Shown here: positions 1,429-45,988 of the stretch, piece after piece | How the letters are laid out: every line of letters starts with the position of its first letter | Numbering within the stretch: the stretch's first letter is position 1 | Source: Capsulimonadaceae bacterium | GTDB lineage: Bacteria > Armatimonadota > Armatimonadia > Armatimonadales > Capsulimonadaceae | Direction: 5' to 3' | NCBI GenBank assembly: GCA_965215505.1 | Contig: OZ244065.1 | Location: forward strand, 1,824,001-1,888,000 | Length of the DNA stretch: 64,000 nucleotides | Position numbers and translations under genes: made by a program | The notes under the pieces: generated by a model | Told to the model about the DNA's origin: nothing | Database searches by the model: none | The model's input: only the letters and a program-made list of their open reading frames with translations

Positions 1429-1434
1429 AGAACG

Positions 1435-2951: not shown

Positions 2952-2976
2952 GTCCCCTCCCTCGGCAAAGAAAAAT

Positions 2977-2997: not shown

Positions 2998-3011
2998 TTA
3001 TTGGGTCAGGC

Positions 3012-6382: not shown

Positions 6383-6468
6383 GGGGCATATTCCGGCACT
6401 GTTGCGGGGTGTCAGGCTGGTAGTGCTGCGGGGGCGTTCAGGAACCCAGTACTGCCTGATACCAGGGC

Positions 6469-24233: not shown

Positions 24234-24295
24234 TCAATAGATTCCATGTATTTGATCAAGATTTCCTTGTCCGATGGGCGCATCGGTGTCATACT
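24234..24295 (+). promoter_or_regulatory. Putative AraC-type direct-repeat operator overlapping the -35 of the GH127 promoter
   Basis: TCAATAGATTCCAT..TTTCCTT at 21-bp spacing, then TTGTCC-N17-CATACT; same architecture at 27936 and 37227. Confidence 0.6.
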
Positions 24296-24424
24296 CATCA
24301 TGGCTTGTTCCATCAAGCCGAATTTTAACGCCGAACTTTGCTTCTTTTCTTCGGCCTGCTGATGAGTGCGCTCCGGGTGAATGCGGTTGGCCGACCGCCA
24401 GGACTCGAATGAAAGTGTACTTCC

Positions 24425-26899
24425 ATGACATCACCGAAAAACATGTCCGCCATGTGTTCCCCAGATCCGTTCCCCGGTTTGCTTCCCCTCAGCCGCCGCC
24501 GGTTTTTGCGGGCGGCCGGCCTCGCCGGGGTCGGGCTGGCATTGGGGTCGCGCGGCAAGTCTGCCACGGCGCGCGCCTCCACAGGGCCGGTTGAAAACGC
24601 CGTTCCCGAGGCGGCGCGGCCGCTGCCGCTGTCCGCTGTCCGCCTCACGGGCGGCCCCCTCAAGCACGCCCAGGAACTGGACGCCAAATACCTGCTGGCG
24701 CTGGAACCGGACCGCATGATGGCCTATTTCCGCAAGCGCGCCGGGTTGAAACCGAAGGCGGCGGGGTATGGCGGCTGGGACGGCGACGGCCGCAACCTGA
24801 CGGGCCATATCGCGGGCCACTACCTGTCCGCCGTCAGCCTGATGTATGCCGCGACGGGGGACCCGCGCTTCAAGCAGCGGGCCGATCACCTGGTCTCGGA
24901 GATGAGGCTGGTCCAGGATAGAAACGGGAATGGCTACCTCGGCGCATTGGAAGGCGCCGAGGAGAGCTTCGCGCGTTTGTCCCAGGGTCAGATCCGCTCC
25001 GGGGGCTTCGATCTGAACGGTCTTTGGTCGCCCTGGTATGTCGAGCACAAGATATTCGCCGGGCTGCGCGACGCGCACCGCCACACCGGGAACCCGGACG
25101 CGCTGGGCGTGGAAACGAGGTTCGCCGGCTGGGTGGAAACGGTCCTCTCCCCGCTCGATGCGGACCAGGACCAGAAGATGCTGAACACCGAGTTCGGCGG
25201 CATGGGCGAGGTGCTGGCCGACCTCTATGCCGACACCGGCGACCGGCGCTGGCTGGCCCTCTCGGACCGGTTCGAACACCACGCCGTTCTGGACCCGCTC
25301 GCGCGCGGGGAGTATCGCCTCGGCGGCCTGCACGCGAACACCCAGGTCCCCAAGCTGATCGGCTCGGCGGCCCGTCATGCCTACACCGGCAACCAGGCCG
25401 ACGGCGCGGCCGCCCGCTTCTTCTGGGATGCGGTCGTCTCCCACCAGACCTTCGCGACGGGCGGCCACGGCAAGGATGAGTATTTCGGGCCAGCGGACCA
25501 ACTCAGCAGCCGCGTCAACGGGCGCACCGACGAGAGCTGCAACGTCTACAACATGCTCAAGCTGACGCGCACGCTGTTCGCGCTGCGGCCCGACATCAAG
25601 TATGCGGAGTTCCAGGAGCGGGCCTTGTTCAACCATGTACTCGGCTCGATGGATCCGGAAGACGGACGCACCTGCTACATGGTCCCGGTGGGCCAGGGAG
25701 TCCAGCATGAGTATCAGGACATGTTTGAGAGCTTTACCTGCTGCGTCGGCACGGGTATGGAGAGCCACGCGCTGCACGGGCACGGCATCTACTACGAGGA
25801 CGGCCACCGCCTCTGGGTCAACCTGTACGCGCCTTCCCATGCCGAGTGGGAAGCCGCCGGGGTGAGCCTCGCGGTCACCACCACATTCCCGGAAGGCGAT
25901 CATGCCGCGCTGGCCATGACGCTCAGATCACCCCACGCCTTCACGCTGGCCTTGCGCCGCCCCTCCTGGGCGGGGGCGGGCTTCGCGGTGAGGGTCAACG
26001 GGAAACCCGTCCGGGCCGTGTCCAAGCCGGGTTCCTATGTGGAGATCAAGCGCACCTGGAAGACCGGCGACATCGTGGCGCTGACTCTGCCGAAAACACT
26101 CCACGCGGAGCCGCTGCCGGATAACCCGCGCCGCGTCGCCTTGCTCTGGGGGCCGCTGGTGCTGGCGGGCGATCTCGGGCCGGAACGGGAGGAGGCCGCC
26201 GGCAGCCCGGTAGCCCCCGTGTTCGTGGCGGCGGAGCAGCCGGTCGCCGCGTGGCTCAAACCGGTCGCCGCCCAGCCGGGCCGGTTCCGCAGCGACGGGG
26301 TCGGGCGGGACATCACCGTCTCCGGCCACGTCTCCGATGTGGACTTCGTGCCGTTCTACCGCCTGCACCGGCGCGCTTATGCCGCGTATTGGGACCTGTA
26401 CACACCTCCGGAGTGGGAAGAAAAGGCCGCCTCCATCGCCGCCGCCCAGGAGAAGCTGCGCCGGCTGGAGGCCGCCACCGTCGGCTACGCCCAGCCGGGG
26501 GAGATGCAGCCGGAGCGCAATTTCCACCAGCAGGGGGCGGACACCACGCCGGACCGCGTGCTGGGGCGCGCGGGCCGCCGGGGGAAGAACTGGTTCTCCT
26601 TTGACCTGCCGGTGGATCCGGCGTACCCGATGACTCTGATCGTGACATACAGCACGCAGGAGTTCCGGGAGCGGACGTTCGATATCCAGGCCGACGGCAC
26701 CCGGATCGGGCAGCAGAAGATCGAGCGCAGCGGCCCCGGAAGCGCCTCCGCAGAATTCTTCGATGTCCTCTATCCTCTGCCGGCGAGCCTCGTGTCAGGC
26801 AAATCCACAGTGACCGTGCGCTTCCAGGCGACCGGCGGCAATGAGATCGCCGCCGTGTTCGGCCTCCGCATGGTCCGTGCGGATGCGCCTCTCGGTTAG
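24425..26899 (+). CDS. Tat-exported GH127/GH146 beta-L-arabinofuranosidase-like protein
   Basis: SRRRFL Tat signal; GHIAGHYLSA, EFGGM, HANTQVPK, ESCNVYNM, TCCVGTG (Zn/Cys catalytic motifs). Confidence 0.88.
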   Translation: MTSPKNMSAMCSPDPFPGLLPLSRRRFLRAAGLAGVGLALGSRGKSATARASTGPVENAVPEAARPLPLSAVRLTGGPLKHAQELDAKYLLALEPDRMMAYFRKRAGLKPKAAGYGGWDGDGRNLTGHIAGHYLSAVSLMYAATGDPRFKQRADHLVSEMRLVQDRNGNGYLGALEGAEESFARLSQGQIRSGGFDLNGLWSPWYVEHKIFAGLRDAHRHTGNPDALGVETRFAGWVETVLSPLDADQDQKMLNTEFGGMGEVLADLYADTGDRRWLALSDRFEHHAVLDPLARGEYRLGGLHANTQVPKLIGSAARHAYTGNQADGAAARFFWDAVVSHQTFATGGHGKDEYFGPADQLSSRVNGRTDESCNVYNMLKLTRTLFALRPDIKYAEFQERALFNHVLGSMDPEDGRTCYMVPVGQGVQHEYQDMFESFTCCVGTGMESHALHGHGIYYEDGHRLWVNLYAPSHAEWEAAGVSLAVTTTFPEGDHAALAMTLRSPHAFTLALRRPSWAGAGFAVRVNGKPVRAVSKPGSYVEIKRTWKTGDIVALTLPKTLHAEPLPDNPRRVALLWGPLVLAGDLGPEREEAAGSPVAPVFVAAEQPVAAWLKPVAAQPGRFRSDGVGRDITVSGHVSDVDFVPFYRLHRRAYAAYWDLYTPPEWEEKAASIAAAQEKLRRLEAATVGYAQPGEMQPERNFHQQGADTTPDRVLGRAGRRGKNWFSFDLPVDPAYPMTLIVTYSTQEFRERTFDIQADGTRIGQQKIERSGPGSASAEFFDVLYPLPASLVSGKSTVTVRFQATGGNEIAAVFGLRMVRADAPLG

Positions 26900-26908
26900 G
26901 AGGCGGCG

Positions 26909-27910
26909 ATGCCCGGAAAGACGATCACGCCGGTCTGGACGCCCGCGCCGGAGCGCCGCCTTAAAGACATGGTCTCCCCCAGCGCCTCCTGGGACGCCGA
27001 CCGGCTGCGCGAGACTTTGCTTGAGGTCGGGATGGAGGCACTGACCACACAGGAGCCGTCACGGCTGATGCTTCCGCCCCCGAAGACGTTCGCGCCCAAG
27101 CGCATCGTGAACCGGAAGGACCTGAACCGCCACCGCTACATCGAGATCGGGATCGTCACCCAGGGCGAGATGTCTCTCTGGTGGGAGGGCGCTTTTTCCC
27201 GATGCCCCGCCGGTTCCGTCTTCATCATCCAGCCAGGGATGCGCTACATGTCGCATGCGGAACTTCCGGAGGAAAACCCGCGCCCCCATTCCGTGGTCTG
27301 GCTGGCGCTGCACCGAGGGTGCGCCATTGTCCACAGATGCTCGGTGCGGAACAGGGACCACTACCTGAGCGAGTATTACTCGCTTGTTGATGTGCAGCTA
27401 ACGGCTTATGCCCGCAGCATCGCCCAGGAGATCGCCGAACGGCCCTCCCACTTTGAAACCGTGGTCCGCGGCAGCCTCCTCTGCCTGTTCACCCTGCTGC
27501 TGCGCGCCCCCATCTACAGCATCTCGCGCCACAGCGGGGCGGGCCGCGAAACGAAAGAAGCCGGGGCGAACCCGTTCAGCGACCGCGTCAGATCCTACCT
27601 GCTTTCGCATTACCACCGCCCTCTGACCCTGGCACAGATCGCCCGCTCGATCGAATGCAGTCCGGCACACCTGTGCCGGCACTTCCGCGAACTCACCGGC
27701 CAGACGCCGTTTCAGTATCTCCGGGCCGTGCGCCTGGAGGCGGCGAAGGCGCTCCTCCTCTCGGAAGTACCGATCGCGCGGATCGCGGAGATGGTGGGCT
27801 TTGACGACCCGCTTTATTTCAGCAAGGTGTTCTCCAGTCAGGTCGGCCAATCCCCGCAGAGCTACCGCGCCGCCTGCCGGGCGTCGGACGTGAGGCCGGC
27901 ATCCCCCTGA
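26909..27910 (+). CDS. AraC-family transcriptional regulator
   Basis: Cupin-like N-terminus; LA.IA....SPAHL.R.F and IAEMVGFDDPLYFSKVF....G.SP..YR HTH. Confidence 0.9.
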   Translation: MPGKTITPVWTPAPERRLKDMVSPSASWDADRLRETLLEVGMEALTTQEPSRLMLPPPKTFAPKRIVNRKDLNRHRYIEIGIVTQGEMSLWWEGAFSRCPAGSVFIIQPGMRYMSHAELPEENPRPHSVVWLALHRGCAIVHRCSVRNRDHYLSEYYSLVDVQLTAYARSIAQEIAERPSHFETVVRGSLLCLFTLLLRAPIYSISRHSGAGRETKEAGANPFSDRVRSYLLSHYHRPLTLAQIARSIECSPAHLCRHFRELTGQTPFQYLRAVRLEAAKALLLSEVPIARIAEMVGFDDPLYFSKVFSSQVGQSPQSYRAACRASDVRPASP

Positions 27911-27935
27911 TCTCATGTCAAAACTTCATCTCATG

Positions 27936-27998
27936 TCAATGATTTCCATGTCTGGAACATGCATTCCATTGCCGCCGTGGGCCGACTGCGGACATAAT
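27936..27998 (+). promoter_or_regulatory. Putative AraC operator/promoter of the hydroxyproline operon
   Basis: TCAATGATTTCCAT..ATTCCAT at 20-bp spacing, then TTGCCG-N18-CATAAT. Confidence 0.6.
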
Positions 27999-28132
27999 AC
28001 ACTCGCCCTTCGGGTTCACTGCCGAGCCTTTCTTCCCCTTCTCGTTTCCCACGTTGCCACTGACGGCGGCGCGGAGGGCCTGCGCTTCCAGCCTTATCCG
28101 TTCCGGCATCCGTGTCACCGAGAGAGACAAAA

Positions 28133-29287
28133 ATGAAACCTACCTGGAAGGGCGTCTTCCCCGCCGTCACCACACAGCTCCATCGGGACCAGTCCCTCGA
28201 CCTGGAGGCCACCGCGCGCCACATCGGGGTGCTGCTTGACTCCGGGATCGCCGGCCTCATCATGCTCGGCTCGCTCGGCGAGAACATCGCCCCGGAGCCG
28301 GACGAGAAGCGGAGCGTCATGCGGATGGCGGTCGAGGCGGTGAGCGGCCGCGTGCCGGTCCTGAGCGGCGTGTCGGAGTGCAGCACGGCCGCCGCCTGCC
28401 GCTACGCGCGTGACATGGAACGGCTCGGGGCGGACGGCCTGATGGTGCTGCCCGCCATGGTCTACAAGGCCGACGCGGACGAGACCATGGAACACTTTCG
28501 GGCGGTCGCCGGCTCCAGCGGCCTCCCGATCATCTGCTATAACAACCCCCTCGCTTATGGCGTGGACATCACGCCGGAGATGTTCGCGCAGATGGCCGAT
28601 GAGGAGAAATTCGTTGCGGTCAAAGAGTCGTCGGGCAACGTGCGGCGCATCACCGACCTCATCAACCTCGTCGGCGACCGCTACACGCTCTTCACCGGCG
28701 TGGACGACCTCACCCTGGAAAGCATCATGCTCGGGGCCGAGGGCTGGATCGCCGGGGTCGGGCTGGCCTTCCCGAAAGAGAACCAGTATCTGTGGGACCT
28801 GTGGGACCTGGCGGCGGGCGGGCAGTGGGAAAAGGCGCGCGAGGTCTATCGGTGGTACATGCCGCTGCTGCACCTGGACATCCCGGTCAAGTTCGTGCAG
28901 TACATCAAGCTGCTGCTCCAGGAGTGCGGCCTGGGGGCCGAATGGGTGCGCGCGCCGCGCCTGTCCCTTCAAGGCGCGGAGCGCGTAGCCGCCCTGAAGA
29001 TCATCCGGCAGGGCATCGAGACCCGGCCGATGATCCCGGCGGGGCATCTGCCGGCCCCCCCTACTGACGGACAGGGGGTGGGATTTTGGAGACCATGCAA
29101 AAAGTCCGTGTCCTCGACTCACACACGGGAGGCGAGCCGACCCGCGTCATCCTCTCCGGCGGCCCAGACCTCGGGGGCGGCACGGCTGAGCAGCAGAGGG
29201 CCGTCTTCCGCAGCCGCTTCGACTCGTTCCGGACCGCAGTCGTCGCCGAACCGCGCGGCTCGGATGTCCTGGTCGGCGCGCTCCTGA
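28133..29287 (+). CDS. lhpC: DapA-family enzyme, likely 1-pyrroline-4-hydroxy-2-carboxylate deaminase (natural end probably ~29067; reads through as assembled)
   Basis: WKGVFPAVTT, GSLGE, YNNP, KESSG, GWIAG; position in a Hyp operon. Confidence 0.8.
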   Translation: MKPTWKGVFPAVTTQLHRDQSLDLEATARHIGVLLDSGIAGLIMLGSLGENIAPEPDEKRSVMRMAVEAVSGRVPVLSGVSECSTAAACRYARDMERLGADGLMVLPAMVYKADADETMEHFRAVAGSSGLPIICYNNPLAYGVDITPEMFAQMADEEKFVAVKESSGNVRRITDLINLVGDRYTLFTGVDDLTLESIMLGAEGWIAGVGLAFPKENQYLWDLWDLAAGGQWEKAREVYRWYMPLLHLDIPVKFVQYIKLLLQECGLGAEWVRAPRLSLQGAERVAALKIIRQGIETRPMIPAGHLPAPPTDGQGVGFWRPCKKSVSSTHTREASRPASSSPAAQTSGAARLSSRGPSSAAASTRSGPQSSPNRAARMSWSARS

Positions 29288-30033
29288 GCAGGCCGGCGGA
29301 CCCTTCCTGCGTCTCGGGCATGATCTTCTTCAATGGCGTGGGCTTCCTCGGCATGTGCGGCCACGGCACCATCGGCGTCGTCGCGGCGCTGGCGTTTCTC
29401 GGCAGGATCGGGCCGGGCGAGTTCCGATTCGAGACTCCGGTCGGGGTGGTGACGGCACACCTGCACGAGTCGGGGGCTGTCTCCGTCAGGAACATCCCCA
29501 GCTTTAGGCTTGCCAAAGACGTGCGGGTCGCCGTGGAAGGCCACGGCAGCATCACCGGCGACATCGCGTGGGGCGGCAACTGGTTTTTCCTGGCCCACGA
29601 CCACGGGCAGGAACTGGTTCCCGCCAACGTGGAGGCCCTGACCGACCTGACCCGCCGCATCCGGCGGGCGCTGGCCGCGCAGGGGATCACCGGGCGCGGG
29701 GGCGCGGAGATAGACCACATCGAGCTGTCCGCGCCCTCGGACACGCCGGGGGCGGACGGCCGCAATTTCGTCCTGTGTCCGGGGAACGCCTATGACCGGT
29801 CGCCCTGCGGCACCGGCACCAGCGCCAAGCTGGCCTGCCTGTTCGCCGACGGCCGGCTGAAGGAGGGGCAGGTGTGGCGTCAGGAAGGCATCCTCGGCGG
29901 CCAATTTGAAGGGACGGTCGCGGTGGACGGCGACCGGCTGATCCCGACCATCACGGGCCGCGCCTATGTCACGGCGGACACGACGCTGCTGTTCGATCCC
30001 ACCGACCCGCTCCGAGAAGGGATACGCCGATGA
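29095..30033 (+). CDS. lhpA: 4-hydroxyproline 2-epimerase (proline racemase family)
   Basis: DSHTGGEPTR, EPRGSD, MCGHGTIG, DRSPCGTGTSA (two catalytic Cys). Confidence 0.88.
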   Translation: MQKVRVLDSHTGGEPTRVILSGGPDLGGGTAEQQRAVFRSRFDSFRTAVVAEPRGSDVLVGALLSRPADPSCVSGMIFFNGVGFLGMCGHGTIGVVAALAFLGRIGPGEFRFETPVGVVTAHLHESGAVSVRNIPSFRLAKDVRVAVEGHGSITGDIAWGGNWFFLAHDHGQELVPANVEALTDLTRRIRRALAAQGITGRGGAEIDHIELSAPSDTPGADGRNFVLCPGNAYDRSPCGTGTSAKLACLFADGRLKEGQVWRQEGILGGQFEGTVAVDGDRLIPTITGRAYVTADTTLLFDPTDPLREGIRR

Positions 30034-31289
30034 CCAGTCCGAAACACATCCTCATCGTCGGCGGCGGCGGCGTCGGCCTGTGCGCCGCCTACTACGCGAT
30101 GCAGAAGGGGCACCAGGTCACGGTCGTCGAGCGCGGCGGCCCGGCGCACGACGCCTGCTCCCTGGGCAATGCCGGGATGATCGTCCCCAGCCATTTCGTC
30201 CCGCTGGCCGCGCCCGGCATGGTCGGCTACGGCCTGCGGATGATGCTCCACCCCGAAAGCCCGTTCTACATCCGGCCCCGCCTGGACCTCGGCCTGATCC
30301 GCTGGGGCCTCCTCTTCGCGCGCTCGGCCACTGCGGCCCATGTGGCCCGCTCGGCACCCCTGCTGCGCGACCTGAGCCTGGCGAGCCGGGGCTGCTATGA
30401 GGACCTCGCCGCCCGGTTCGGCGACGTCTTCGGGCTGACCAAGCGGGGCCTGCTGATGCTCTGCAAGTCAGAACACTCCCTGCACGAAGAAGCGCGGATG
30501 GCGGCGGCAGCCTGCGCGCTGGGCCTGCCCGCCGATGTTTTATCACCCTCCGAGGCCGCCCGGCTCGATCCGGGCGTGCGGATGGACATCGTGGGCGCGG
30601 TCCACTACCCGCAGGACTGCCACTTCTTCCCCCAGGTCTTCATGGCGCGACTGACGGAGGCCCTGGAAGCGGGCGGGGCGCAGTTCTGCTGGGAAACCGA
30701 GGTGACCGGCTGGCGCGCGGACCGGGGCCGGATCATCGCCGTGGAAACCTGCCAGGGCGACAAGCAGGCCGACGAATATGTGCTGGCCGGCGGCTCCTGG
30801 TCACCGCAGACGGTGCGCGGGCTGGGCCTCCGGCTGCCCACCCAGGCGGGAAAGGGCTACAGCCTTTCTCTGCCCGAGCCACGGCAGATGCCGCGGCTCT
30901 GCTCGATCTTTACCGAAGCGCGCGTCGCCGCCACCCCGATGGGTTCCACCCTGCGTTTCGGCGGGACGATGGAGATCACCGGGCTGGACCCCTCGGTCAA
31001 TCGGTCGCGCGTGGACGGCATCCTCAAGGCGATCCCGCAGTATTTCCCGGACTTCAGGCCGGAGGACTTCCGGGACCTGCCCGTCTGGAGCGGCCTGCGG
31101 CCCTGCTCGCCCGACGGCCTGCCGTATGTGGGCCGCTTCGGGCGCTACCTCAATTTGTCGGCGGCCACCGGCCATGCGATGATGGGGATGAGCCTGGGGC
31201 CGGTGACGGGTAAACTGATCGCGGAGATCCTTTCGGGGGAAACCCCCGAGATCGCGCTCGATGCTCTCAGCCCGGACCGGTTCGGTTAA
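30030..31289 (+). CDS. FAD-dependent D-amino acid dehydrogenase, probable D-hydroxyproline dehydrogenase
   Basis: GGGGVG FAD motif, CSLGNAG, GKGYS, WSGLRPCSPDGLP, GHAMMG. Confidence 0.85.
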   Translation: MTSPKHILIVGGGGVGLCAAYYAMQKGHQVTVVERGGPAHDACSLGNAGMIVPSHFVPLAAPGMVGYGLRMMLHPESPFYIRPRLDLGLIRWGLLFARSATAAHVARSAPLLRDLSLASRGCYEDLAARFGDVFGLTKRGLLMLCKSEHSLHEEARMAAAACALGLPADVLSPSEAARLDPGVRMDIVGAVHYPQDCHFFPQVFMARLTEALEAGGAQFCWETEVTGWRADRGRIIAVETCQGDKQADEYVLAGGSWSPQTVRGLGLRLPTQAGKGYSLSLPEPRQMPRLCSIFTEARVAATPMGSTLRFGGTMEITGLDPSVNRSRVDGILKAIPQYFPDFRPEDFRDLPVWSGLRPCSPDGLPYVGRFGRYLNLSAATGHAMMGMSLGPVTGKLIAEILSGETPEIALDALSPDRFG

Positions 31290-31294
31290 AAAAC

Positions 31295-33919
31295 ATGGAA
31301 AAAAAGTTGTCACGACGGAAATTCTTGCAGCAGGCAACCGCGGTCGGCGGCGCGACCCTCCTCGCGGCCTCCGGGGCGGGCGCGGCCATCCCCGCCGCGC
31401 CGCCCAAAGGGAAAGGCGGCCCGCCGCGCCCCTACCGCCCGACGCGGGCCGAGATCAAAGAGGCATTCGAGCGCCAGAAGGAGTATGACGCCCGAGCGCG
31501 TCTGCCCGTTTATCAGGCCAAGATCACGCCGTACTGGTTTGCCGAGAATACCTCCTTCTGGTATCGGACTGATCTGCCCGAAGGACGCCGCCGGTTCGTC
31601 TGCGTTGATGCGGTGCGCGGGGTCCGCGCGGCGGCCTTCGACCACGCGCGGCTGGCCGCCGGCCTGTCCAAAGAAGCGGGGAAAGTCTACACCGCCGACC
31701 GTCTGCCGATCCAGGAGATCGAATACACGCCGCAAAAGCGGGCCATCCGGTTCGCCGCCGACGGGGCGGCCTGGCAGTGCGACCTGGCCTCCTATGTCTG
31801 TACGCGGATCGCCGCCACCGACCTGACGCCGGCGGCCGTCGTCACGGACCAAGGGCCGAGTGGCGGGGGCCGAAGATCGCGCAGAAACCGCGCGCCGGAG
31901 GACGCGGCACCCGTGTTCGTCAGGGACCATAACCTCTGGCTTCGCGCCCAAGGGGGCGGGGCCGAGACGGCGCTGACCCACGACGGCACGGCGGACCGGC
32001 CCTACGGCGAGATCGCTTTGTCGCCGGATGCCCGCACCTTCGCCGCCTACCGCATCGACCCCGCGCCGATCAAGCCGGTCTACATGGTCGAGTCCTCGCC
32101 CAAAGACGGCGGGACGCGCGGCGTGCTGCATCAGCACGAGTACGCCCAGCCCGGTGATCCGTTCCCCCTGTACGAGATGTGGGTGTTCGACACCGCCGCC
32201 GGGACCGGAGTCAAGGCGCAGGTCGAGAAGACCGCGACCGGCGGGACGCCCGAACTGCACTGGCGCAAAGACGGCCGGACGTTCCTGTTCGAGCGGGCGG
32301 ACCGGGGCCACCAGTTCTTCCAGATCGTTGAGATCACGGTCGGGACGGGCCGGGCCCGCATCATCGCGGACGAGCGCGCGAAGACGTTCATCAACACCAG
32401 CAACGTCTACACCTACTATGCGCGGGACGCCGCCGAGGTGCTGTACGCCTCCGAAATGGACGGATGGAGGCACCTCTACCGCTATGACGCCGTGCAGGGG
32501 AAGCTCGCGAACCAGGTGACGCGCGGGGACTGGGTGGTGCGGAGCGTGGACCGGGTGGACGAGGAGGCCGGGCAGGTCTGGTTCCAGGCCAGCGGCCGGA
32601 ACCCCGGCGAGGACCCGTACCTGCTCCATCACTACCGGGTCAATTTCGACGGCACCGGCCTGGTCGCGCTGACCGAAGGCGACGGCACCCACGCCGTGCA
32701 GTATTCGCCTGACAACGCCTACCTGATCGATTCGTACTCCCGCGCCGACCTGCCGCCCGTCCATGTGCTGCGGAAGGCGTCCGACGGCAGCCTGGTCTGT
32801 CCCCTGGAGGAAGCCGACGTGTCCGCGCCGCTGGCCGGCGGCTGGCGGTTCCCGGAAGTGTTCCGCGCCAAGGGCCGGGACGGGGCGACGGACATCTGGG
32901 GGATCGTCTTCCGGCCCGCCCACCTGGACCCGGCCAGGAAGTACCCAATCATCGAGAACATCTATGCTGGGCCGCAGGATTCGTTCGTCCGCAAGACCTT
33001 CGCCGTGCGCGACTCGATGCAGGCATTGGCCGACCTGGGCTTCATCGTCGTGCAGTGCGACGGCATGGGGACGCGCAACCGCTCCAAGGCCTTCCACGAT
33101 GTCTGCTGGCACGACCTCAAAGACGCCGGCTTCCCCGACCGGATCGCCTGGATCAAGGCCCTGGCCGCGAAGCACCCCTACTGCGACACGGACCGGGTGG
33201 GCGTGTACGGCACCTCGGCGGGCGGGCAGAACTCCACCGGCGCGCTGCTGTTCCACCCGGAGTTCTATAAAGTCGGCGTCTCGTCGTGCGGCTGCCACGA
33301 CAACCGCATTGACAAGCAGTGGTGGAACGAGCAGTGGATGGGCTACCCGGTCGGGCCGTGGTATGACGACAGCTCGAACATCGTCCACGCGGAGAACCTG
33401 CGCGGCAAGCTGCTCCTGCTGGTGGGCGAGCTGGACACGAACGTGCCGCCCGAGTCCACATTGCGGCTGACCGGGGCATTGCAGAAGGCGGGCAAGGATT
33501 ACGACCTGATCGTCAGCATCGGGCAGGACCACGGCAGCGGCGGCCCCTACGGCGAACGTCGCCGGCGCGACTATTTCGTCCGGCACCTGCTCGGGGTCGA
33601 GCCGCCCGACCGCAACGTGCCGGCCCCGCCCCCCGCGCCGGTCGTGCTGACGCCCCGGTCGGCCGGCGAGGAGAGCTTGGCGCAGGCCGAGGGCGGGGCG
33701 GACACCAGCATACGGTTCCACAACGGGACGAGCCATCCGGCCCTGCTTTTCTGGCTGCCCGGCGACGGCACGCGCAAGTCCTACGGGGAGATCGCGCCTG
33801 GGGAGGATCGCGAGGTCCACACCTATAGCAGCCATTCCTGGCTCGTGACCGCCAAAGACGGCCCGCCGCTGGCGGTGTTCGTCGGCGAGGAGCATCCCGG
33901 CATCGCCGAGATTCGCTGA
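31295..33919 (+). CDS. Tat-exported S9B (DPP IV-like) prolyl peptidase with C-terminal VHL-like beta domain
   Basis: SRRKFL Tat signal; beta-propeller; YAGPQ, GTSAGG nucleophile, ELDTNV, H; tail IRFHN...FWL..DG....Y....PG.....HTY..H.W. Confidence 0.88.
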   Translation: MEKKLSRRKFLQQATAVGGATLLAASGAGAAIPAAPPKGKGGPPRPYRPTRAEIKEAFERQKEYDARARLPVYQAKITPYWFAENTSFWYRTDLPEGRRRFVCVDAVRGVRAAAFDHARLAAGLSKEAGKVYTADRLPIQEIEYTPQKRAIRFAADGAAWQCDLASYVCTRIAATDLTPAAVVTDQGPSGGGRRSRRNRAPEDAAPVFVRDHNLWLRAQGGGAETALTHDGTADRPYGEIALSPDARTFAAYRIDPAPIKPVYMVESSPKDGGTRGVLHQHEYAQPGDPFPLYEMWVFDTAAGTGVKAQVEKTATGGTPELHWRKDGRTFLFERADRGHQFFQIVEITVGTGRARIIADERAKTFINTSNVYTYYARDAAEVLYASEMDGWRHLYRYDAVQGKLANQVTRGDWVVRSVDRVDEEAGQVWFQASGRNPGEDPYLLHHYRVNFDGTGLVALTEGDGTHAVQYSPDNAYLIDSYSRADLPPVHVLRKASDGSLVCPLEEADVSAPLAGGWRFPEVFRAKGRDGATDIWGIVFRPAHLDPARKYPIIENIYAGPQDSFVRKTFAVRDSMQALADLGFIVVQCDGMGTRNRSKAFHDVCWHDLKDAGFPDRIAWIKALAAKHPYCDTDRVGVYGTSAGGQNSTGALLFHPEFYKVGVSSCGCHDNRIDKQWWNEQWMGYPVGPWYDDSSNIVHAENLRGKLLLLVGELDTNVPPESTLRLTGALQKAGKDYDLIVSIGQDHGSGGPYGERRRRDYFVRHLLGVEPPDRNVPAPPPAPVVLTPRSAGEESLAQAEGGADTSIRFHNGTSHPALLFWLPGDGTRKSYGEIAPGEDREVHTYSSHSWLVTAKDGPPLAVFVGEEHPGIAEIR

Positions 33920-33945
33920 CCCATGATCGCGGAGGGACGAGCGGT

Positions 33946-35466: not shown

Positions 35467-35504
35467 CGCCTGCTTGACGGCCGGTGGACCCAGGAGATGA
35501 TCCC

Positions 35505-37181
35505 ATGCCCCTCCCCTCCGACGGCTTAAGCCTGGACGACTTCGACGTCTCGCCTGACCGGATGCCGGCGCTGGTCGCCCGGTTCCGGGCGGACCATGAG
35601 TGCCTGAACCGACCGTCCAAGTCGCCGCTCTCCGCACAGCGCCGGGAGCGGATGCGGCAGTTTTTGGCGGGCTGGCGTCGGACGCTGGGACGGATCCCTT
35701 TTGACGACCTGACGCGCAGTGACCGGGCCGACTGGCTGCTGCTGCGCTCCTATCTGGACGCCGAGGCGCGGGAGCTGGATCAGGAGGAGCGCGGCTCCGC
35801 CGAGGCGGCGGCGCTGCTGCCCTTCGCGGACAGCCTGGTGGCGCTGGAAGAGCGACGCCTGGCGATGGAAGACGTGGACGCCGAAGCCGCCGCCGAGACC
35901 CTGGATCACGCCGCCGGCCAGGTACGGGAACTGTGTGCCGCGCTCAAAGACGACGCGCCGGCCCCGAGCGGCACGGCGGCGGCGGAAGCCGCGCGTGTCC
36001 TCGCCCGGCTTCAGCCGATGCTGAAATCCTGGTTCGAGTTCTATCACGACTACGACCCGCTGTTCACCTGGTGGGTCGAGAAGCCGTATGCCGGGCTGGA
36101 AAAACTGCTCGCCGACGCTGCCGCCCTCGTGCGCGAATCGGCCGCCGGGGCCGGGGAGGAGGCCGTCCTGGGCCACCCGATCGGGCGTGACGCACTCGTC
36201 GCCGAACTGCACTCGGCACAGATCTCCTACACGCCGGAGGAACTGATCGCGGCGGGACGCGCCGAGACGCAGTGGTGCCGCTCGGAACTCGGGCGGGCAG
36301 CGCAGGAGATGGGGCACGGCGACGACTGGCGGGCCGCCCTGGAGCAGGTCAAGCGCGGGCACGTCGCGCCGGGCCGGCAGCCGGCCCTGGTGCGCGACCT
36401 GGCGCGGGAGGCCATGGACTATGTCGAGGCCGAGGACCTGATCGCGGTGCCGCCGCTCGCCCGCGAGTGCTGGCGCATGGAGATGATGTCGCCGGAGCGG
36501 CAGAAGGTCAACCCGTTCTTCCTCGGCGGCGAGTCCATCATCATCTCGTTCCCGACGCAGGGGATGGAGCAGGCCCAAAAGCGGATGAGCCTCCGGGGCA
36601 ACAACCGCGCCTTCGCGCGGGCGACGGTCCAGCATGAGCTGATCCCCGGCCACCGGCTACAGGCGTTCTATCAGGAGCGCTGGCGGCCTTACCGCCGGCT
36701 GTTCTACACGCCGTTCTGGACGGAGGGCTGGACGCTGCACTGGGAAATGCTTTTGTGGGAGCGCGGCTTCGCGCGGACCCCGGAGGAGCGGATCGGGATG
36801 CTGTTCTGGCGTCAGCACCGCGGCGTGCGCGTCCTCTTCTCGCTGGGCTTCCACCTGGGCCAGATGACGGCGGGGGAGTGTGTCGAGATGCTGGTGGACG
36901 AGGCGGGGCACGAGCGCGACAACGCCGTGGCCGAGGTGCGCCGCTCCCTGGAAGGCGACTACGGCCCCCTCTACCAGTGCGCCTACCTGATCGGCGGCCT
37001 CCAGATGCATGCGCTCTATCAGGAGATGGTCGGCGGGGGCCGCCTCAGCGCCCGCGACTTCCACGAGGCGGTGTTGCGCGAGAACTGCATGCCCCTCGCG
37101 ACGCTGCGCGCCCTGCTGACCGGCGGGCCGCTGGGCCACGATTTCCGGCCCGAGTGGCGCTTCTTGCGGCCCGCCAAGTGA
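35505..37181 (+). CDS. DUF885-family protein (putative metallopeptidase)
   Basis: YDPLFTWW, HELIPGH, WTEGW.LHWE, YQCAYLIGGL. Confidence 0.8.
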   Translation: MPLPSDGLSLDDFDVSPDRMPALVARFRADHECLNRPSKSPLSAQRRERMRQFLAGWRRTLGRIPFDDLTRSDRADWLLLRSYLDAEARELDQEERGSAEAAALLPFADSLVALEERRLAMEDVDAEAAAETLDHAAGQVRELCAALKDDAPAPSGTAAAEAARVLARLQPMLKSWFEFYHDYDPLFTWWVEKPYAGLEKLLADAAALVRESAAGAGEEAVLGHPIGRDALVAELHSAQISYTPEELIAAGRAETQWCRSELGRAAQEMGHGDDWRAALEQVKRGHVAPGRQPALVRDLAREAMDYVEAEDLIAVPPLARECWRMEMMSPERQKVNPFFLGGESIIISFPTQGMEQAQKRMSLRGNNRAFARATVQHELIPGHRLQAFYQERWRPYRRLFYTPFWTEGWTLHWEMLLWERGFARTPEERIGMLFWRQHRGVRVLFSLGFHLGQMTAGECVEMLVDEAGHERDNAVAEVRRSLEGDYGPLYQCAYLIGGLQMHALYQEMVGGGRLSARDFHEAVLRENCMPLATLRALLTGGPLGHDFRPEWRFLRPAK

Positions 37182-37226
37182 GGCTGAAAGGCGGGCCGGA
37201 AGCGAGTGTTCACTTATTGCAGCAGG

Positions 37227-37288
37227 TCAATATATTCCATATTTATATCTTGAATTCCTTTGTTTTGCGCGCGTGGCTGCGGCATAAT
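37227..37288 (+). promoter_or_regulatory. Putative AraC operator/promoter of the DUF1559-DUF5695 unit
   Basis: TCAATATATTCCAT..ATTCCTT at 20-bp spacing, then TTGTTT-N17-CATAAT. Confidence 0.6.
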
Positions 37289-37537
37289 ACAGTTGCTCCG
37301 GCGGCCAGCCTGTGGCAGTCTTCCTCCTCGCGAGCGCGTGGCCTGCGCGGTTCATTGGTGAGCCTCTTACTCTTCCGAATCTCCTGCGCCCCTTCGGCAG
37401 CGGCGCAGACATCGCACGGTCGTCACCGTCCGCGAGTCCGACGACGGCTCATTCTCCAGCCCTTCTTCTATCGTCAGTATCATCGGTGATGCGGCCCGCT
37501 CAAGATTTCTGTCGTTTCTACTCAGAAAGGGAACCCC

Positions 37538-38333
37538 ATGGTACAGACAGACACGCCCGCCCCCCCAGAAGCGTCAGGGCTTCACCTTGATCGAACTGCT
37601 CGTCGTCATCGCGATTCTCGCGGCGATACTTTTCCCGGTCTTCCAGAAGGTCCGCGAGAACGCCCGCCGCACGTCTTGTCTCAGCAACCTCAAGCAGCTC
37701 GGGCTGGGCTTCACCCAGTATGTCCAGGACGGCGACGAGAAGTATCCGGGCCTCTCCGCCGCTGATCCGAACTTTGTTGGGCAGAGCGGCTGGGCAAGCC
37801 AGATCTATCCCTATGTGAAGAGCGTCGGCGTCTATACCTGTCCCGATGACGGCACGGTCGGCACCCCGCAGAAGACCTACAAGACTCCGCAGAAGGTGTC
37901 TTATGATGTGAACTACTACATCTATGTCGTGGACTACGGGCAATATGCGGAGGGCATATCCAATGCGACATACATAGACAACACGAACGGCGCGGCGCTG
38001 TCTCAGTTCAACGCGCCTTCAAGCACCTTCCTCTTATACGAAATCAGTGATCCGACGCCGCAGCAATACACCGGCAACAACGGGGACCCTTCCATCACCC
38101 CAATCACTGCCGCCAGTGCCTCGGGAGGATCGAGCGGCGACTACGGCTGGCTTCCTACTCGTCACGACTCGACTGCCGAGTATGCCTCCAATTACCTGGC
38201 AGCGGATGGTCATGTGAAATTCCTGAAAGCGTCCAGCGTTTCCTTCGGGACCGGCACCCCCGGCAATAGAAACGGCACGCGCACCGATAACCGGGGGTCG
38301 AAGGGGCAGGCGATCACGATCCGATTGCAGTGA
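37538..38333 (+). CDS. DUF1559 prepilin-type N-terminal cleavage/methylation protein with H-X9-DG motif (frameshift in C7 tract near the start)
   Basis: [47 protein letters not shown]......NY..ADGHVK; ATG 37538 is out of frame by one base. Confidence 0.82.
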
Positions 38334-38482
38334 GGCCAGCCCTCATGTACATCAGCCGCGCGATTGCGGCCTGCTGAGACGGGGGGAGCAGTCTGATTCG
38401 ATCCCTCTCCCCCTATTCGATGGTCGCTGTTCCATCGGGAGGTAATCTCCCGACTAATAGATCGCCTAACCCTGGAGTTTCT

Positions 38483-39952
38483 ATGTCAAACCCCATCAAA
38501 CCACCCGTATTCATCGCCATCGTGGTGGCGGCCGTTCTTCTCGTCGGCCTGATCGGCTACAAACTCGTCGCGGCCGGCCACCCGCCCCTGCGAACAGATG
38601 CCGCTTCCCAAGAGTTGTATGCTTCATACGCAAAAGCGCGGGCGCAAAAGCTGGCAGGCGGCAAGGGGATGCCGCCGGCCCGACACACCCCTGAAACACT
38701 CCTGAGAACCATCACGATGAAGCACGGCACCCCGGTACTGGCGGCGGTCACATTCCTGCTCGGAGCGCTGGCCGCCGGGGGAGACGGCGGCACACCTCTC
38801 CCCCTGCTGCGGGCGAATTACCCGAAGATCGTCGCCATCGCCCCGCCCGGAGACTGTTTTTTCACCAAAATGCTCGATTTCCACGGCATCCCGATTAAAG
38901 CAAGCTCGGTCGTCTCAGATGAGGCCCTCGATGCGGCCTATGACCGGCTGGCACTCGAACTGGCACACCTCCCCGTAGTGACCGTCAACCTCGTGGCGGC
39001 GGGCGCGCAGCTCCAGATCATCGGCAAAGATCAGGTCACTTCGGACCTGCCGGAGTTCCGCGCCCTCAAGGGCAGACCCCTTCCGAAGTACAACGGCCTG
39101 ACCATTGGCCAAAGGACGCGCGGCATGGGCGGTCTGGAAACGTCCTGCGGGGAGGAGCACCTGCTGAAATTGGACAAAGACCGCTACCGGGGACGCGACA
39201 TCTGCCTGCACGAGTTCGCCCACTGCATCCGAGATCACGGCATACAGGCGGAGATCGTCGCCCGCGCCTGCCCCCCATCTCCGGCTCGGTATGCCTCCTA
39301 CCTCAGCGCCTGGGCATTGGTCAATTCCGGCACGCCGGAGTCGGGCTACGGCTACTGGTACCCCGGCCTGGAAAACGACGGTGGGGCGGGGGGCGGGTTC
39401 GAGCCGGCCCCGACCGGGACGACGTGGCTGGGCCAGCCACACCACCGCGGCTCCTGGTATTACTCCTGCGAGGAGAATCCCGGCTACTGCGGCGCATTGC
39501 GGACCGCCGCCACCATTCTGACGGATGACCCCATCTTCGGGCGATTCTGCTTCGGGGGCGACTGGCGCAGGACGACGGCGGGCCTGGAAGTCATCCCGAA
39601 GGACGGGCTGCGGAAGCGGTTCCATGCCCTGATCGGCGGCAGGCTGCACCTGGTCTCGGAAACGGATCGCTTTCCCGCCGGACGTCCCATCATCGTCCGG
39701 GAAACCCTCTCGGAGATTCGCTTCTCTCTGAAAAGCGATAACCCGGCACCGCACACCGCCGCCGTCCGCCTGTCGGGGCTGCCGCCGGGCGGATATGTCG
39801 TCAGTGCCGCCGACGGGAGCGGACTGACGGCGGAACAGGGCAAAACAAAGATCATCGCGGGCCAGGAAACCCTCCTGGGGCTGCCGATGGCCGGCAACGG
39901 CAGCCGGACGTTCCTGCTGAAGCGGCAGACAAGAGAAAGAGTTCCAAGTTGA
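38483..39952 (+). pseudogene. Fused/deleted gene remnants: small membrane protein + HExxH zincin N-terminal part + DUF5695-like C-terminal part
   Basis: TM peptide at 38483; second signal peptide MKHG at 38717; CGEE.LL....DRY.G.DIC.HEFAH then abrupt switch (~39275) to SAWALVNSG..WYPG.ENDG..WYYSCE. Confidence 0.6.
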
Positions 39953-42723
39953 ACAAACAGAGGCAGGGAAATCGGGGAGTCTGGCTGATCGGGCTGGCGC
40001 TGTTTCTCCTCGCGCCCATCGTGTCGAGGGCGCAAGGGGATGGCCGGCCAAAACCCCCGGCAACGCTGGGGTTGGAGCAGGGCGTGATGACCATTGACAC
40101 GCCCGATTTCGCCCTCACGCTGGTCAAGGCGTCTCAGACGGTCGCTTCGCTCCAGCCGAAAGTCGGTCAGCCGAAAGGCGGCGCGGGTTTCGACTTCACA
40201 CCCACCGACCGGCTGCCGATCCGGTCCGGGGACGGCTTCTACCATCTGGGGGACCTGACCTTCCGCGCCCGCGTCGGCGGCACCGGCCCCTGGAAAGACT
40301 ACTCCACGGCCGCCGCCCGCCGCCCGATCTTGGCGCTGCCCCCCGCCGCCGGGGAGCTGGCCGCCGCCGACCTCGCCGCGACCCTGCCGGCGGACTGCCC
40401 CCTGCATGTCACCCGCACCTGGGCGCTGGAGAACGGCCGACTCGCGCTGCGCTTTGCCCTCCGGAACACGTCGGCGGGGACGATCCAGATCGGCGCGCTC
40501 GGCATCCCGATGGTCTTCAACAACATCATCAGCGACCGCACCTTGGAACAGGCGCATGCGGCCTGTTCGTTCTCCGACCCCTACATCGGGCAGGACGCGG
40601 GCTACCTCCAGGTGACGCGCCTGAGCGGCCACGGGCCGACACTCGTCGTCGTCCCAGACGGGAAGACGCCGTTTGAGGCGTACCGGCTGCTGAATGAACC
40701 GATGCGCCCGAACCAGACATTCGAAGGCATGTTCGCCTGGATGGTCCACACCCAGGCTTATGCCGAGAACGAATGGAAGGGGGCGAACCAGTGGAACCCG
40801 CCGACGCAGGCCGCGCTCGCGCCGGGGCAGGCCCGCACCTACGGCGTCAGGTTCCTCGTTTCCGGCGAGATTCGCGGCATCGACAGAACGCTGGCCGCCG
40901 ATCACCGCCCCCTGGCGATCGGCATCCCCGGTTATGTCCTGCCGATGGATCAGACGGGCAAGCTGTTTCTCAGGTATGCCTCCAGAGTGGCCTCGGTGGC
41001 CGTCGAGCCGGCGGGCGCGATCCGGTTCAGCCCCGGCAAGCCCACCCCGAACGGCTGGAAGAGTTACGACCTGCACGGCAGGACCTGGGGCCGGGCCAGG
41101 GTGACCGTGACCTATGCAGACGGTCTGGTGCAGGCGATCAGCTATAACGTGATTAAGCCCGAGGCGCAGGCGGTGGCCGATCTCGGGCACTTCCTGACGA
41201 CCAAACAGTGGTTCGATGACCCGAACGACCCCTTCCACCGCGCGCCCTCCGTGATCAGCTACGACCGGGAGGCCGACCGGCAGGTGACGCAGGACAGCCG
41301 TGTCTGGATCGCGGGCCTGGGGGACGAGGGCGGGTCCGGCTCGTTCGTGGCCGCCGCCATGAAGGAGTTCGGCCGGCCCGATGCGGTCGAAGTCGCCAAA
41401 TACTCGCAGTTCGTGGACAAGGTGCTGTGGGGCGTGATCCAGTACAAGGACGGTCCGAACAAGTACGGCGTCCGCAAGAGCGTGTTCTTCCACGACCCGG
41501 CGAAACTGCCGGACTTCCCCTATGATCCGGCCCTGGACTGGCGTTCGTGGACGAGCTGGAACAAAGAGGCTTCGGAGGACATTGGACGCGGCTACAACTA
41601 TCCCCATGTCGTCGCCGCCTACTGGGCGATGTACCGTGTGGCCCGAAACCATCCCGGTATGGTCACGGCCCGCCCCTGGCAGTGGTATCTGGAGCAGGCC
41701 TATCAGACGACTCACTTCATGTTCAGCCGGGACGCCCACGGGGACCGCCGGGTCGGCTATGTCGAGCTTGGGCTGATGGAGGGGGACGTGTTCCTGGCGA
41801 TGCTCAAGGACTTGCAGAACGAAGGCTGGACGGCGAAGGCGGCCGACGTCACCGCGCTGATGAAGGAGCGCGCCGACCGCTGGAGCCACGAAGCTTACCC
41901 GTTCGGCAGCGAAATGGCCTGGGACTCGACCGGCCAGGAAGAGGTCTACGCCTGGTGCAAATACTTCGGTTTTGAGGACAAAGCGGAGGTCTCCCTCAAC
42001 TCCATCCTCGGCTACATGCCGACCCTGCCGCACTGGGGCTACAACGGCAACGCGCGCCGCTACTGGGATTTCTTGTACGGCGGTAAGCTGCCCCGGATCG
42101 AGCGCCAGATCCACCACTACGGCTCCGGCCTTAACGCCATCCCGGTGCTGTCGGAGTACCGTTCGCACCCCGACGACTATCTGCTGCGGGTCGGCTACGG
42201 CGGGGTTTTAGGCCCGCTGACCAACATCGACCAGGGGGGGTTCGCCTCCGTGGCCTTCCACTCGTTCCCCTCGACTCTCAAGTGGGACGCTTACTCGGGC
42301 GATTACGGCCCGAACTTCTTCGGGCATGCGATGAACACGGCGACGTATCTCATTGACCACCCCGAGTTCGGCTGGCAGGCTTACGGCGGCAATGTCCAGA
42401 CGGACGACGGCTGGGTGAAGGTGCAGCCGCGCGACTCGTTCCGCACCCGCGTTTACATCGCGCCGCGCGGCCTGTGGCTGACTCTGGATGCCGGCACCTT
42501 CGAGAGCGTTGAGGTAAGCCGCCGGAGTCATACAGTGCGGGTGAGCCTGGCCCCGGCCGCGGCCTATACGCCGCAGGCGCTCCTGCATTTGGAACAGCCC
42601 GCGAAGATCGCCGGAGTCAAGACCTATCATCCGGTCGGTCAGCCTCTCCCCCAGTCACGAGGCGCTTATGTCGTTGGTTTGAAAACCAACGCAGTCTGGG
42701 TGACTCTGAACGACACTCCCTGA
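39949..42723 (+). CDS. Secreted DUF5695-family putative glycoside hydrolase
   Basis: Signal peptide; FDFTP.D, HLGDL, WIAGL.DEGG, R.YNYPH, YPFGSEMAWDSTGQE, HWGYNGNARRYWDF, ERQIHHYGS. Confidence 0.78.
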   Translation: MNKQRQGNRGVWLIGLALFLLAPIVSRAQGDGRPKPPATLGLEQGVMTIDTPDFALTLVKASQTVASLQPKVGQPKGGAGFDFTPTDRLPIRSGDGFYHLGDLTFRARVGGTGPWKDYSTAAARRPILALPPAAGELAAADLAATLPADCPLHVTRTWALENGRLALRFALRNTSAGTIQIGALGIPMVFNNIISDRTLEQAHAACSFSDPYIGQDAGYLQVTRLSGHGPTLVVVPDGKTPFEAYRLLNEPMRPNQTFEGMFAWMVHTQAYAENEWKGANQWNPPTQAALAPGQARTYGVRFLVSGEIRGIDRTLAADHRPLAIGIPGYVLPMDQTGKLFLRYASRVASVAVEPAGAIRFSPGKPTPNGWKSYDLHGRTWGRARVTVTYADGLVQAISYNVIKPEAQAVADLGHFLTTKQWFDDPNDPFHRAPSVISYDREADRQVTQDSRVWIAGLGDEGGSGSFVAAAMKEFGRPDAVEVAKYSQFVDKVLWGVIQYKDGPNKYGVRKSVFFHDPAKLPDFPYDPALDWRSWTSWNKEASEDIGRGYNYPHVVAAYWAMYRVARNHPGMVTARPWQWYLEQAYQTTHFMFSRDAHGDRRVGYVELGLMEGDVFLAMLKDLQNEGWTAKAADVTALMKERADRWSHEAYPFGSEMAWDSTGQEEVYAWCKYFGFEDKAEVSLNSILGYMPTLPHWGYNGNARRYWDFLYGGKLPRIERQIHHYGSGLNAIPVLSEYRSHPDDYLLRVGYGGVLGPLTNIDQGGFASVAFHSFPSTLKWDAYSGDYGPNFFGHAMNTATYLIDHPEFGWQAYGGNVQTDDGWVKVQPRDSFRTRVYIAPRGLWLTLDAGTFESVEVSRRSHTVRVSLAPAAAYTPQALLHLEQPAKIAGVKTYHPVGQPLPQSRGAYVVGLKTNAVWVTLNDTP

Positions 42724-43308: not shown

Positions 43309-44235
43309 CTAAATCCCTGCCAGCAGCGATCTTGACATCTTGCAGACCACCGTGTAGGCGGGGTCGAACACGTTCGCGACCTCGTATTCCACGCACTGCC
43401 CCAGCAGCGTATGCGCCCCCACCCAGTCCAGCCCGTAATCCTCCTGGAGCCAGCGGGCCATCTCGCTGGTCGCGTGCTGCAACGCCTGGTCCAGAGGGCG
43501 CGCGTTCCCCGCCGTCAGGAGGTGCGTCTCGGTCTCGGCGCGGGGCCACCCGATCGTCTTCCCCTTGATGACCGCGAGCGTGAACCGGACGTCGAACGAG
43601 ATCTCGATGCCGGTCCCACAGACCTCCCCGCACCCTTGCAGGGCGTGGCCGTCGCCCAGAAAGAACAAAGCGCCGGGGACGGCGACGGGGAAGAAGACCG
43701 TCACGCCCTCCACGAAGCCCTTGTAGTCCATGTTGCCGCCGTGGGTGGACGAAGTCGCCGTGGAGACCGCCTCCCCGCCCGGCGGGGCGACCCCGAAGCA
43801 GCCCACCATCGGGCGGACGGGGAGACTAAGGCGGCCCAGCCTCGTTTCGGGCGCGGTGAGGGTGGCCGTGCCCACCTCCATGTCCACGTCCCACTCGCCG
43901 CTGCCCTCGGCAAAGCCGGGCGGGGGCGGCAGCCGGGCCACGTCGGCGGGGTCCATGACATTCGAGGCGAGCTGGATGCCGCTCCAGCCGAAGCGGCGGT
44001 TGGGGCGCAGATGGTCCAGGCGGACGGCGAGCGTATCGCCCGGCTCCGCGCCTTCCACGAAGAAGGGGCCGGTCATGGGGTTGACGCCGGTGTGGCGGCG
44101 CTGGCGAGCGGCGTCGAAGCCGCGCGCGTCCACGGTGGTCGTCTCGACGGCGTCGCCGCCGGCGACGTGCAGCACGGGCGGATGGGTGCCGAGGGTGCTG
44201 AAGTAGTGGTCGGGCGTGAACAGGTGCGTGGTCAT
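43309..44235 (-). CDS. Acetamidase/formamidase family protein
   Basis: NPMTGPF.VEGAEPGDTL, HGGNMD, GDGHALQG.GEV. Confidence 0.88.
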   Translation of the reverse strand: MTTHLFTPDHYFSTLGTHPPVLHVAGGDAVETTTVDARGFDAARQRRHTGVNPMTGPFFVEGAEPGDTLAVRLDHLRPNRRFGWSGIQLASNVMDPADVARLPPPPGFAEGSGEWDVDMEVGTATLTAPETRLGRLSLPVRPMVGCFGVAPPGGEAVSTATSSTHGGNMDYKGFVEGVTVFFPVAVPGALFFLGDGHALQGCGEVCGTGIEISFDVRFTLAVIKGKTIGWPRAETETHLLTAGNARPLDQALQHATSEMARWLQEDYGLDWVGAHTLLGQCVEYEVANVFDPAYTVVCKMSRSLLAGI

Positions 44236-44287
44236 GCGTCCTCGTCCTTCTCCGTCGGGATCGTCTGTCAGGGGCTTGTCCCGGCTG

Positions 44288-45975: not shown

Positions 45976-45988
45976 TTAAACCACCTCC

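Follow-up and report, generated by a model that had tools for sequence, protein, structure and literature searches.

A predicted AraC-activated regulon in a Capsulimonadaceae bacterium for the use of hydroxyproline-rich glycoproteins

In a 64,000-nucleotide stretch of DNA from a Capsulimonadaceae bacterium (the window; contig OZ244065.1 of assembly GCA_965215505.1, positions 1,824,001 to 1,888,000), a block of genes probably constitutes a regulon, activated by AraC, through which hydroxyproline-rich glycoproteins (HRGPs) or glycopeptides derived from them are used. All eleven genes named in the preliminary description lie on the + strand in one co-oriented block (24425-42723) flanked by − strand genes, as judged from Pfam and open reading frame (ORF) calls. 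We envisage that an exported DUF5695 protein would trim the HRGP glycan and that an exported GH146 enzyme would take the last beta-L-arabinofuranose off hydroxyproline (Hyp). Release of Hyp would then fall to an exported S9 peptidase of DPP-IV-like type and a cytoplasmic DUF885 protein, aided in relatives by a PPEP-like endopeptidase and aminopeptidase P. Finally, an epimerase, a D-Hyp dehydrogenase, a pyrroline-4-hydroxy-2-carboxylate (Pyr4H2C) deaminase and an alpha-ketoglutarate semialdehyde (KGSA) dehydrogenase would turn Hyp into 2-oxoglutarate and ammonia. Coupling of deglycosylation, proteolysis and Hyp catabolism without SusC/D had been proposed earlier; it is now supported by an operator common to three units and by a synteny survey that found the genes clustered both in relatives and across three further phyla.

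The operator consists of TCAATnnwTTCCAT and, 13 bases on, a second half-site, whose last letters are the TTG of the −35 box. There is one copy in each long intergenic stretch of the block: before GH146-araC (24234-24269), before the Hyp/peptidase unit (27936-27971, overlapping a promoter-like site at 27969-27998) and before the DUF1559-DUF5695 unit (37227-37262). The start of the block in the preliminary description, 24234, is the first base of copy 1. At least three promoter units make up the block, which has intergenic gaps of 222 and 365 bp. A search of the 6.18-Mb genome with the strict 14-mer gives three sites, all of them in this block, and in leave-one-out tests no more than 3-4 genome positions reach the score of the operator left out. 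A direct repeat at 20-21 bp beside the −35 box is typical of AraC-family activators. We infer that the AraC-family protein of the block (26909-27910; Pfam), whose orthologues in the relatives G188 and G190 are themselves preceded by the operator, binds these sites. That the three units share one predicted regulatory site supports their coupling.

The operator is also found outside this genome: four relatives have it upstream of Hyp, GH146, GH51, AraC and DUF1559 genes, two of them upstream of DUF5695 as well. A matrix built solely from the window places sites ahead of dapA, GH51, DUF1559, araC and DUF5695 in relatives (before DUF5695 in G188 and G190, before GH51 in G188). In G188, araC and one DUF5695 gene sit 0.5 Mb away from the Hyp genes, with the operator kept at both. 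A 36-base pattern has 16 matches in five genomes (before dapA in four cases, DUF1559 in five, araC in two, GH146 in two, and once each before a GH51-GH146 unit, a gene resembling phosphoenolpyruvate (PEP) carboxykinase and no evident target), but it was composed after the relatives' sites had been seen, which makes the matches inside those loci partly circular and gives specificity more weight than sensitivity. On the side of specificity, it has no match when read backwards and none in five relatives without the epimerase. The relevant acidobacterial and plasmid loci gave no half-site match.

A few further sites deserve mention. The next-best operator-like site in the genome (G000:C1:3338571; score 27.5 vs. 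36-37.5) precedes the gene of an unassigned modular protein, which is possibly a fourth regulon member. The copy at L234 (G188:C1:5290063) precedes a gene divergent from GH51. By its motifs we take this gene to encode a GTP-dependent PEP carboxykinase, a target that would fit gluconeogenesis from Hyp. A 1222-aa LamG and DUF6055 protein (L189:6577-10242) is divergent from the second GH146 gene of G190 and lies behind a weak operator-like site.

The core of the middle unit is the set of four Hyp enzymes, all present at the family level (Pfam/NCBIfam). The established route takes L-Hyp to 2-oxoglutarate through the epimerase, D-Hyp dehydrogenase, Pyr4H2C deaminase and KGSA dehydrogenase (PMC5343134). 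The predicted 4-hydroxyproline 2-epimerase (29095-30033; Pro_racemase, E = 5e-94) has the catalytic cysteine pair C88/C238. It scores 420.7 bits (cut-off 450) and 402 bits (cut-off 442) against the NCBIfam models of Hyp epimerase, and 209.9 bits (cut-off 556) against that of proline racemase. Family and context together place the other three in the Hyp pathway, with substrates that are accordingly putative: a DapA-like deaminase of the DHDPS family (28133-29287, K164), a single-subunit FAD-dependent D-amino-acid dehydrogenase (30030-31289; DAO in Pfam, also NCBIfam) and an aldehyde dehydrogenase (33946-35466; Aldedh), 52% identical to that of the Granulicella Hyp cluster. The DapA-like domain ends near 29050; in this strain the frame goes on past the point where the gene usually stops, and one extra base is present there in contigs of two other studies. 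An Ldh_2-family oxidoreductase, possibly a pyrroline-2-carboxylate reductase, recurs in Hyp loci (L202-L204, L209, L179:8706-9725), and adjoins GH146 and DUF885 in Sphingomonas loci.

The glycosidase (24425-26899), which carries a twin-arginine signal, was at first labelled GH127/HypBA1. Pfam assigns it to GH127/146 (E = 5e-110), and its PDB matches place it in GH146 rather than GH127, nearer to BT0349 and Bll3HypBA1: 5opj (BT0349) matches at E = 2e-137 and 8k7x at 1e-58, and GH127 entries at 1e-21 or weaker. The Cys3-Glu zinc site and the catalytic glutamate are kept (E352, E370, C372, C439 and C440, aligned with 5opj and 8k7x), and an extra C-terminal domain is DUF6805 (Pfam). In a FastTree phylogeny, from which XeHypBA1 and Bll4HypBA1 are absent, the clade of the window enzyme is set apart from the GH146s of xylan and arabinan loci. 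The substrate does not follow from the family alone, because two characterised GH146 enzymes act on, and prefer, arabinofuranosyl-beta-Hyp, whereas BT0349, the best PDB relative, acts on arabinan oligomers (PMC10850190). The genome holds a second GH146 (44-46% identical), split by contig ends (G000:C1:6174000-6177771 and 1-7000) amid GH27, GH39, GH31 and GH51 matches; that cluster gave no match to the operator half-site.

Two peptidase genes belong to the Hyp unit. The S9 peptidase (31295-33919) has a twin-arginine signal, a DPPIV_N domain and the full catalytic triad (S641/D714/H746). Its C-terminus is a VHL-beta-like domain (residues 806-851, about 33710-33850), and the same Pfam family occurs in several longer zincin homologues. 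DUF885 (35505-37181), without an evident signal peptide, has the HELIPGH and EGW motifs of a putative metallopeptidase; its solved relatives come only from structural genomics. The epimerase, the aldehyde dehydrogenase, DUF885 and the full-length DUF5695 are each single-copy in the genome.

A third peptidase is represented in the window by a remnant. Single-sequence PDB searches with the zincin gave no match, and the fold was recognised from a model (predicted local distance difference test score, pLDDT, 92.4) of the intact zincin of G190 (P0391). This matches the Pro-Pro endopeptidase PPEP-2 with Z 14.5 (root-mean-square deviation, rmsd, 3.5 over 173 aligned residues) and PPEP-3 with Z 14.2, and anthrax lethal factor comes close below at Z 13.0. 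The intact G190 protein, which has an HExxH motif, thus has the fold of PPEP-1/2/3 at about 20% identity, whereas the window copy, about 30% identical to it, is truncated after HEFAH. The model suggests that the intact zincin may be a proline-directed endopeptidase.

DUF5695 (39949-42723; 1292 bits in Pfam) is secreted and intact. Single-sequence PDB searches with it gave no match; homology emerged by profile and fold. Its model (pLDDT 96.4) has the PL27 lyase BACCELL_00875 as the top Foldseek match (E = 6e-33, TMt 0.83), with Z 36.3 and rmsd 3.0 over 644 aligned residues; the next match has Z 19.8. A 54-member DUF5695 profile matches only the same protein in the PDB (E = 1e-24). By these comparisons of profile and model, DUF5695 is a distant homologue of PL27 lyases. 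In the profile alignment, R447, E537, E541, R593, W595, D596, H612 and Y613 of PL27 correspond to R519, E627, D631, R676, W678, D679, H695 and Y696 of DUF5695 (mature numbering). R447 and Y613 reportedly have active-site roles in PL27, and R519, E627, D631 and Y696 are near-invariant across DUF5695 subtypes (R519 in 133/133 rows, Y696 in 125/127). The characterised protein (PDB 5no8/5nok) is an L-rhamnose-alpha-1,4-D-glucuronate lyase. It shares the overall fold with DUF5695, but DUF5695 is 14-16% identical to it, is about 200 residues longer, has GH146 and Hyp genes as neighbors and lacks a GH105 partner. Genes of Spirosoma and Chondrinema that had been considered as DUF5695 were discarded: the Spirosoma gene scores as GH127, and neither locus passes a barrel-only profile.

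What DUF5695 does can be narrowed to a few candidates. Two stand level as the foremost, neither reaching an even chance: a lyase acting on a 4-O-substituted uronate cap, as in arabinogalactan-proteins (AGPs), and a beta-L-arabinoside hydrolase in place of GH121. Rather improbable is a beta-eliminase acting on galactosyl-O-serine, which is conceivable for a PL27-type apparatus because the sugar-O-C-CH-C=O geometry is the same as in rhamnosyl-glucuronate. Some other activity seems less probable again. Elimination of arabinose from arabinosyl-Hyp itself can be set aside, as it is chemically unsuited because O4 sits gamma to the carbonyl. A bolder and doubtful proposal covers the whole glycoprotein. 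The system would then be widespread and hitherto undescribed. Here, DUF5695 would be a new enzyme class with the Arg/Tyr apparatus of PL27, eliminating galactose from serine in extensin or cutting beta-arabinan in place of GH121, and the zincin and DUF885 would be Hyp-Hyp peptidases opening the Ser-Hyp4 backbone.

Part of the third unit has decayed. The preliminary description had called the locus putatively complete, which it is not: DUF1559 is frameshifted, the zincin and a second DUF5695 gene are deleted in part, and no transporter, GH121, GH51 or GH27 was found among the genes of the block. GH51 and GH27 occur elsewhere in the genome; the GH121 profile NF041578 has only weak partial matches in 3/25 genomes, none above the cut-off. 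The DUF1559 prepilin-type gene (37547-38333) has its frameshift near the start and is about 70% identical to the intact copies in G188 and G190. The ORF at 38420-39952 joins three remnants: a small membrane-anchored DUF1559 partner (38483-38716), the N-terminal half of the secreted zincin (38717-39289, HEFAH at 39209) and the last 200 or so residues of a second, divergent DUF5695 (39290-39952), 44-52% identical to such proteins in 10 loci. An assembly artefact was considered and rejected, because contigs of three other studies (X3 37644-40293, X4 37643-40989 and X7 38180-39289) bridge the junction; the deletion is therefore real. In two of these three contigs the small membrane protein is out of frame with the zincin; its in-frame fusion is seen in this strain only. 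The zincin of a congener is likewise truncated. In G188 and G190, the zincin and DUF1559 are intact, and G190 has both DUF5695 types. DUF1559 has at least 60 matches genome-wide, and in three genomes DUF1559 genes have the operator upstream, five copies in all; some DUF1559 proteins may therefore be substrate-specific uptake parts.

Gene clustering extends the case beyond one genome. Across the class, the epimerase is present in 32/71 genomes and DUF5695 in 20/71. Same-family genomes with both have them within 20 kb in four of six cases. Only one of 23 congeners (G015) has the epimerase, and there GH146 is inverted and has shifted to the opposite end. A sample of 120 genomes, drawn evenly from an acidobacterial order, yielded DUF5695 in 13; the epimerase is present in 11 of the 13, within 15 kb in eight. 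These eight genomes, which are kin, three with one arrangement, all have GH127/146, S9 and a TonB-type receptor, with an amino-acid permease in seven, DUF885 in six and GH27 in four. With gene order shuffled, similar parts lie beside Hyp genes in Acidobacteriota, Sphingomonadaceae and Spirosoma. A plasmid survey gave 29 records with a GH146 relative; inspection covered 17 of them and 12-20 kb of flanking sequence. The 10 best loci have the epimerase or deaminase nearby in four cases, DUF5695 in four and S9, DUF885 or M24 in eight, whereas the seven weaker ones, in xylan, arabinan or pectin contexts, have neither Hyp genes nor DUF5695.

Cultured bacteria are represented: GH146 lies beside Hyp genes in Granulicella tundricola (MP5ACTX9), Spirosoma oryzicola (RHs26) and Novosphingobium RL4. 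In G. tundricola it is immediately upstream of them, amid DPP IV, two M1 peptidases, aminopeptidase P and TonB-type receptors; in S. oryzicola the gene set is accompanied by SusC/D. Sphingomonas sp. R1 is a further cultured carrier, and Capsulimonas corticalis has genes for homologues (P0033, P0301 and P0392). Two conserved proteins of 750-820 aa in acidobacterial Hyp loci (L170:142-2589, L106:1-2256 and L055:14781-17174) have no Pfam, NCBIfam or meaningful PDB match. They were considered as GH121, an identity that no family match supports. One Atlas match hints at a six-hairpin glycosidase, and both are candidate HRGP enzymes. An annotated subclass B1 metallo-beta-lactamase (L211:15613-16320) lies near GH146 on a Hymenobacter tibetensis plasmid. 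In the window itself, acetamidase/formamidase and SsuABC-like ABC transporter genes flank the block (43309-47098, − strand), with no connection seen.

Several observations weigh against the proposed regulon. Besides the circularity, the kinship, the arabinan activity of BT0349 and the genes missing from the block already mentioned, none of four tested families of carbohydrate-active enzymes (CAZymes) is nearby at 70/80 epimerase loci. In the sister family, 0/11 genomes with both epimerase and DUF5695 have them on one contig, most of these genomes being fragmented. Among 34 DUF5695 metagenome loci, the epimerase is present in two (1/14 of those at least 12 kb long). Since 15/34 of the same loci have GH127/146, the tightest pair is DUF5695-GH146, with Hyp catabolism as a frequent but optional companion. 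A chance gathering would make the genes from epimerase to DUF885 an operon for Hyp or collagen peptides that happens to lie among the CAZyme genes of a glycan-rich genome, without functional coupling. Hyp regulons with collagenases are known (PMC5343134), GH127/146 is found at four loci of this genome and GH27 gives six matches there, and Hyp genes of the sister family, over the stretches retrieved, retain S9 but have neither GH146 nor DUF5695. We nevertheless regard such a coincidence as very unlikely: one operator precedes the GH146, Hyp and DUF5695 units and nothing else in the genome, the linkage outlasts rearrangement in G015 and recurs in four phyla, and Hyp genes accompany four of the 10 best plasmid GH146 matches vs. 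none of the seven weaker ones.

Two other views accept the coupling and differ on its use. The preliminary description put forward extensin or algal wall as a putative substrate. AGPs, not extensin, could instead be the target, with DUF5695 as a PL27-like uronate lyase uncapping AGP side chains. The resemblance to PL27 by fold and profile speaks for it, as does the removal of rhamnose from gum arabic AGP by PL27 through beta-elimination (PMC8377490). The locus of a congener also has GH39 and GH51, and GH88/105 is near DUF5695 in 4/34 metagenome loci. However, one GH88/105 query had no match in this genome or in any locus with both DUF5695 and the epimerase, no galactanase family was found among the neighbors in the part of the ORFs scanned with Pfam, and GH51, GH27 and GH127/146 fit extensin glycans. 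We hold the AGP alternative to be possible and the lesser prospect. Equally tentative is the thought that, with decay of the locus under way, its present use in this organism is confined to small Hyp glycopeptides or to free Hyp supplied by others. The broken DUF1559, the truncated zincin (here and in the congener), the mostly deleted second DUF5695 and the rarity of the epimerase among congeners are in its favor; the catalytic residues kept in GH146, S9, DUF5695 and the Hyp enzymes, and three intact operators, speak against it. A regulon for HRGPs or their glycopeptides remains our preferred interpretation.

Little has been written on how bacteria use the protein moiety of extensins and AGPs, and the characterised systems consulted for comparison take off sugars only. 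The regulon offers candidates for each missing step and would tie DUF5695, DUF885 and the PPEP-like zincin to one substrate class. Its recurrence in unrelated bacterial groups points to an undescribed recycling route for hydroxyproline-rich plant glycoproteins, and versions of it exist in cultured strains. Plant glycoproteomics would gain tools from peptidases specific for Hyp or from O-deglycosylases. A literature search, with subscription journals mostly outside it and supplements excluded, returned no description of sugar-peptidase-Hyp coupling or of DUF5695 function. Sugar stripping by hypBA clusters and HypR coupling of Hyp catabolism to collagenases were known; the operator, the Armatimonadota form, the PPEP-like zincin and the mapped decay are what the present analysis adds.

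In closing, the block can be set beside three known kinds of system. The hypBA1/hypBA2/hypAA clusters of Bifidobacterium longum and Xanthomonas euvesicatoria (PMC6085000, PMC10850190) likewise use a GH127/146 beta-L-arabinofuranosidase on HRGP arabinosides. As described in those papers they remove glycan only, no Hyp catabolism being mentioned, although the Xanthomonas cluster adjoins a prolyl oligopeptidase pseudogene (PMC6085000); the block lacks GH121 and GH43 and has instead DUF5695, several peptidases and the full Hyp pathway. One report (PMC4454575) proposes extensin use on the basis of a GH127 gene alone. The HypR regulons and hyp operons of Proteobacteria share the four core enzymes leading to 2-oxoglutarate and the extension of the regulon to upstream proteases, but they are described with a GntR-type HypR and collagenases (PMC5343134), whereas the block has CAZymes and, at the locus, AraC in place of HypR (Pfam). 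Polysaccharide utilization loci also have co-regulated CAZymes, as predicted here. The counterpart loci have SusC/D (Spirosoma) or TonB-type receptors, and Pfam finds neither these nor a transporter for the system among the window genes; in contrast to such loci, the block includes peptidases and amino-acid catabolism.

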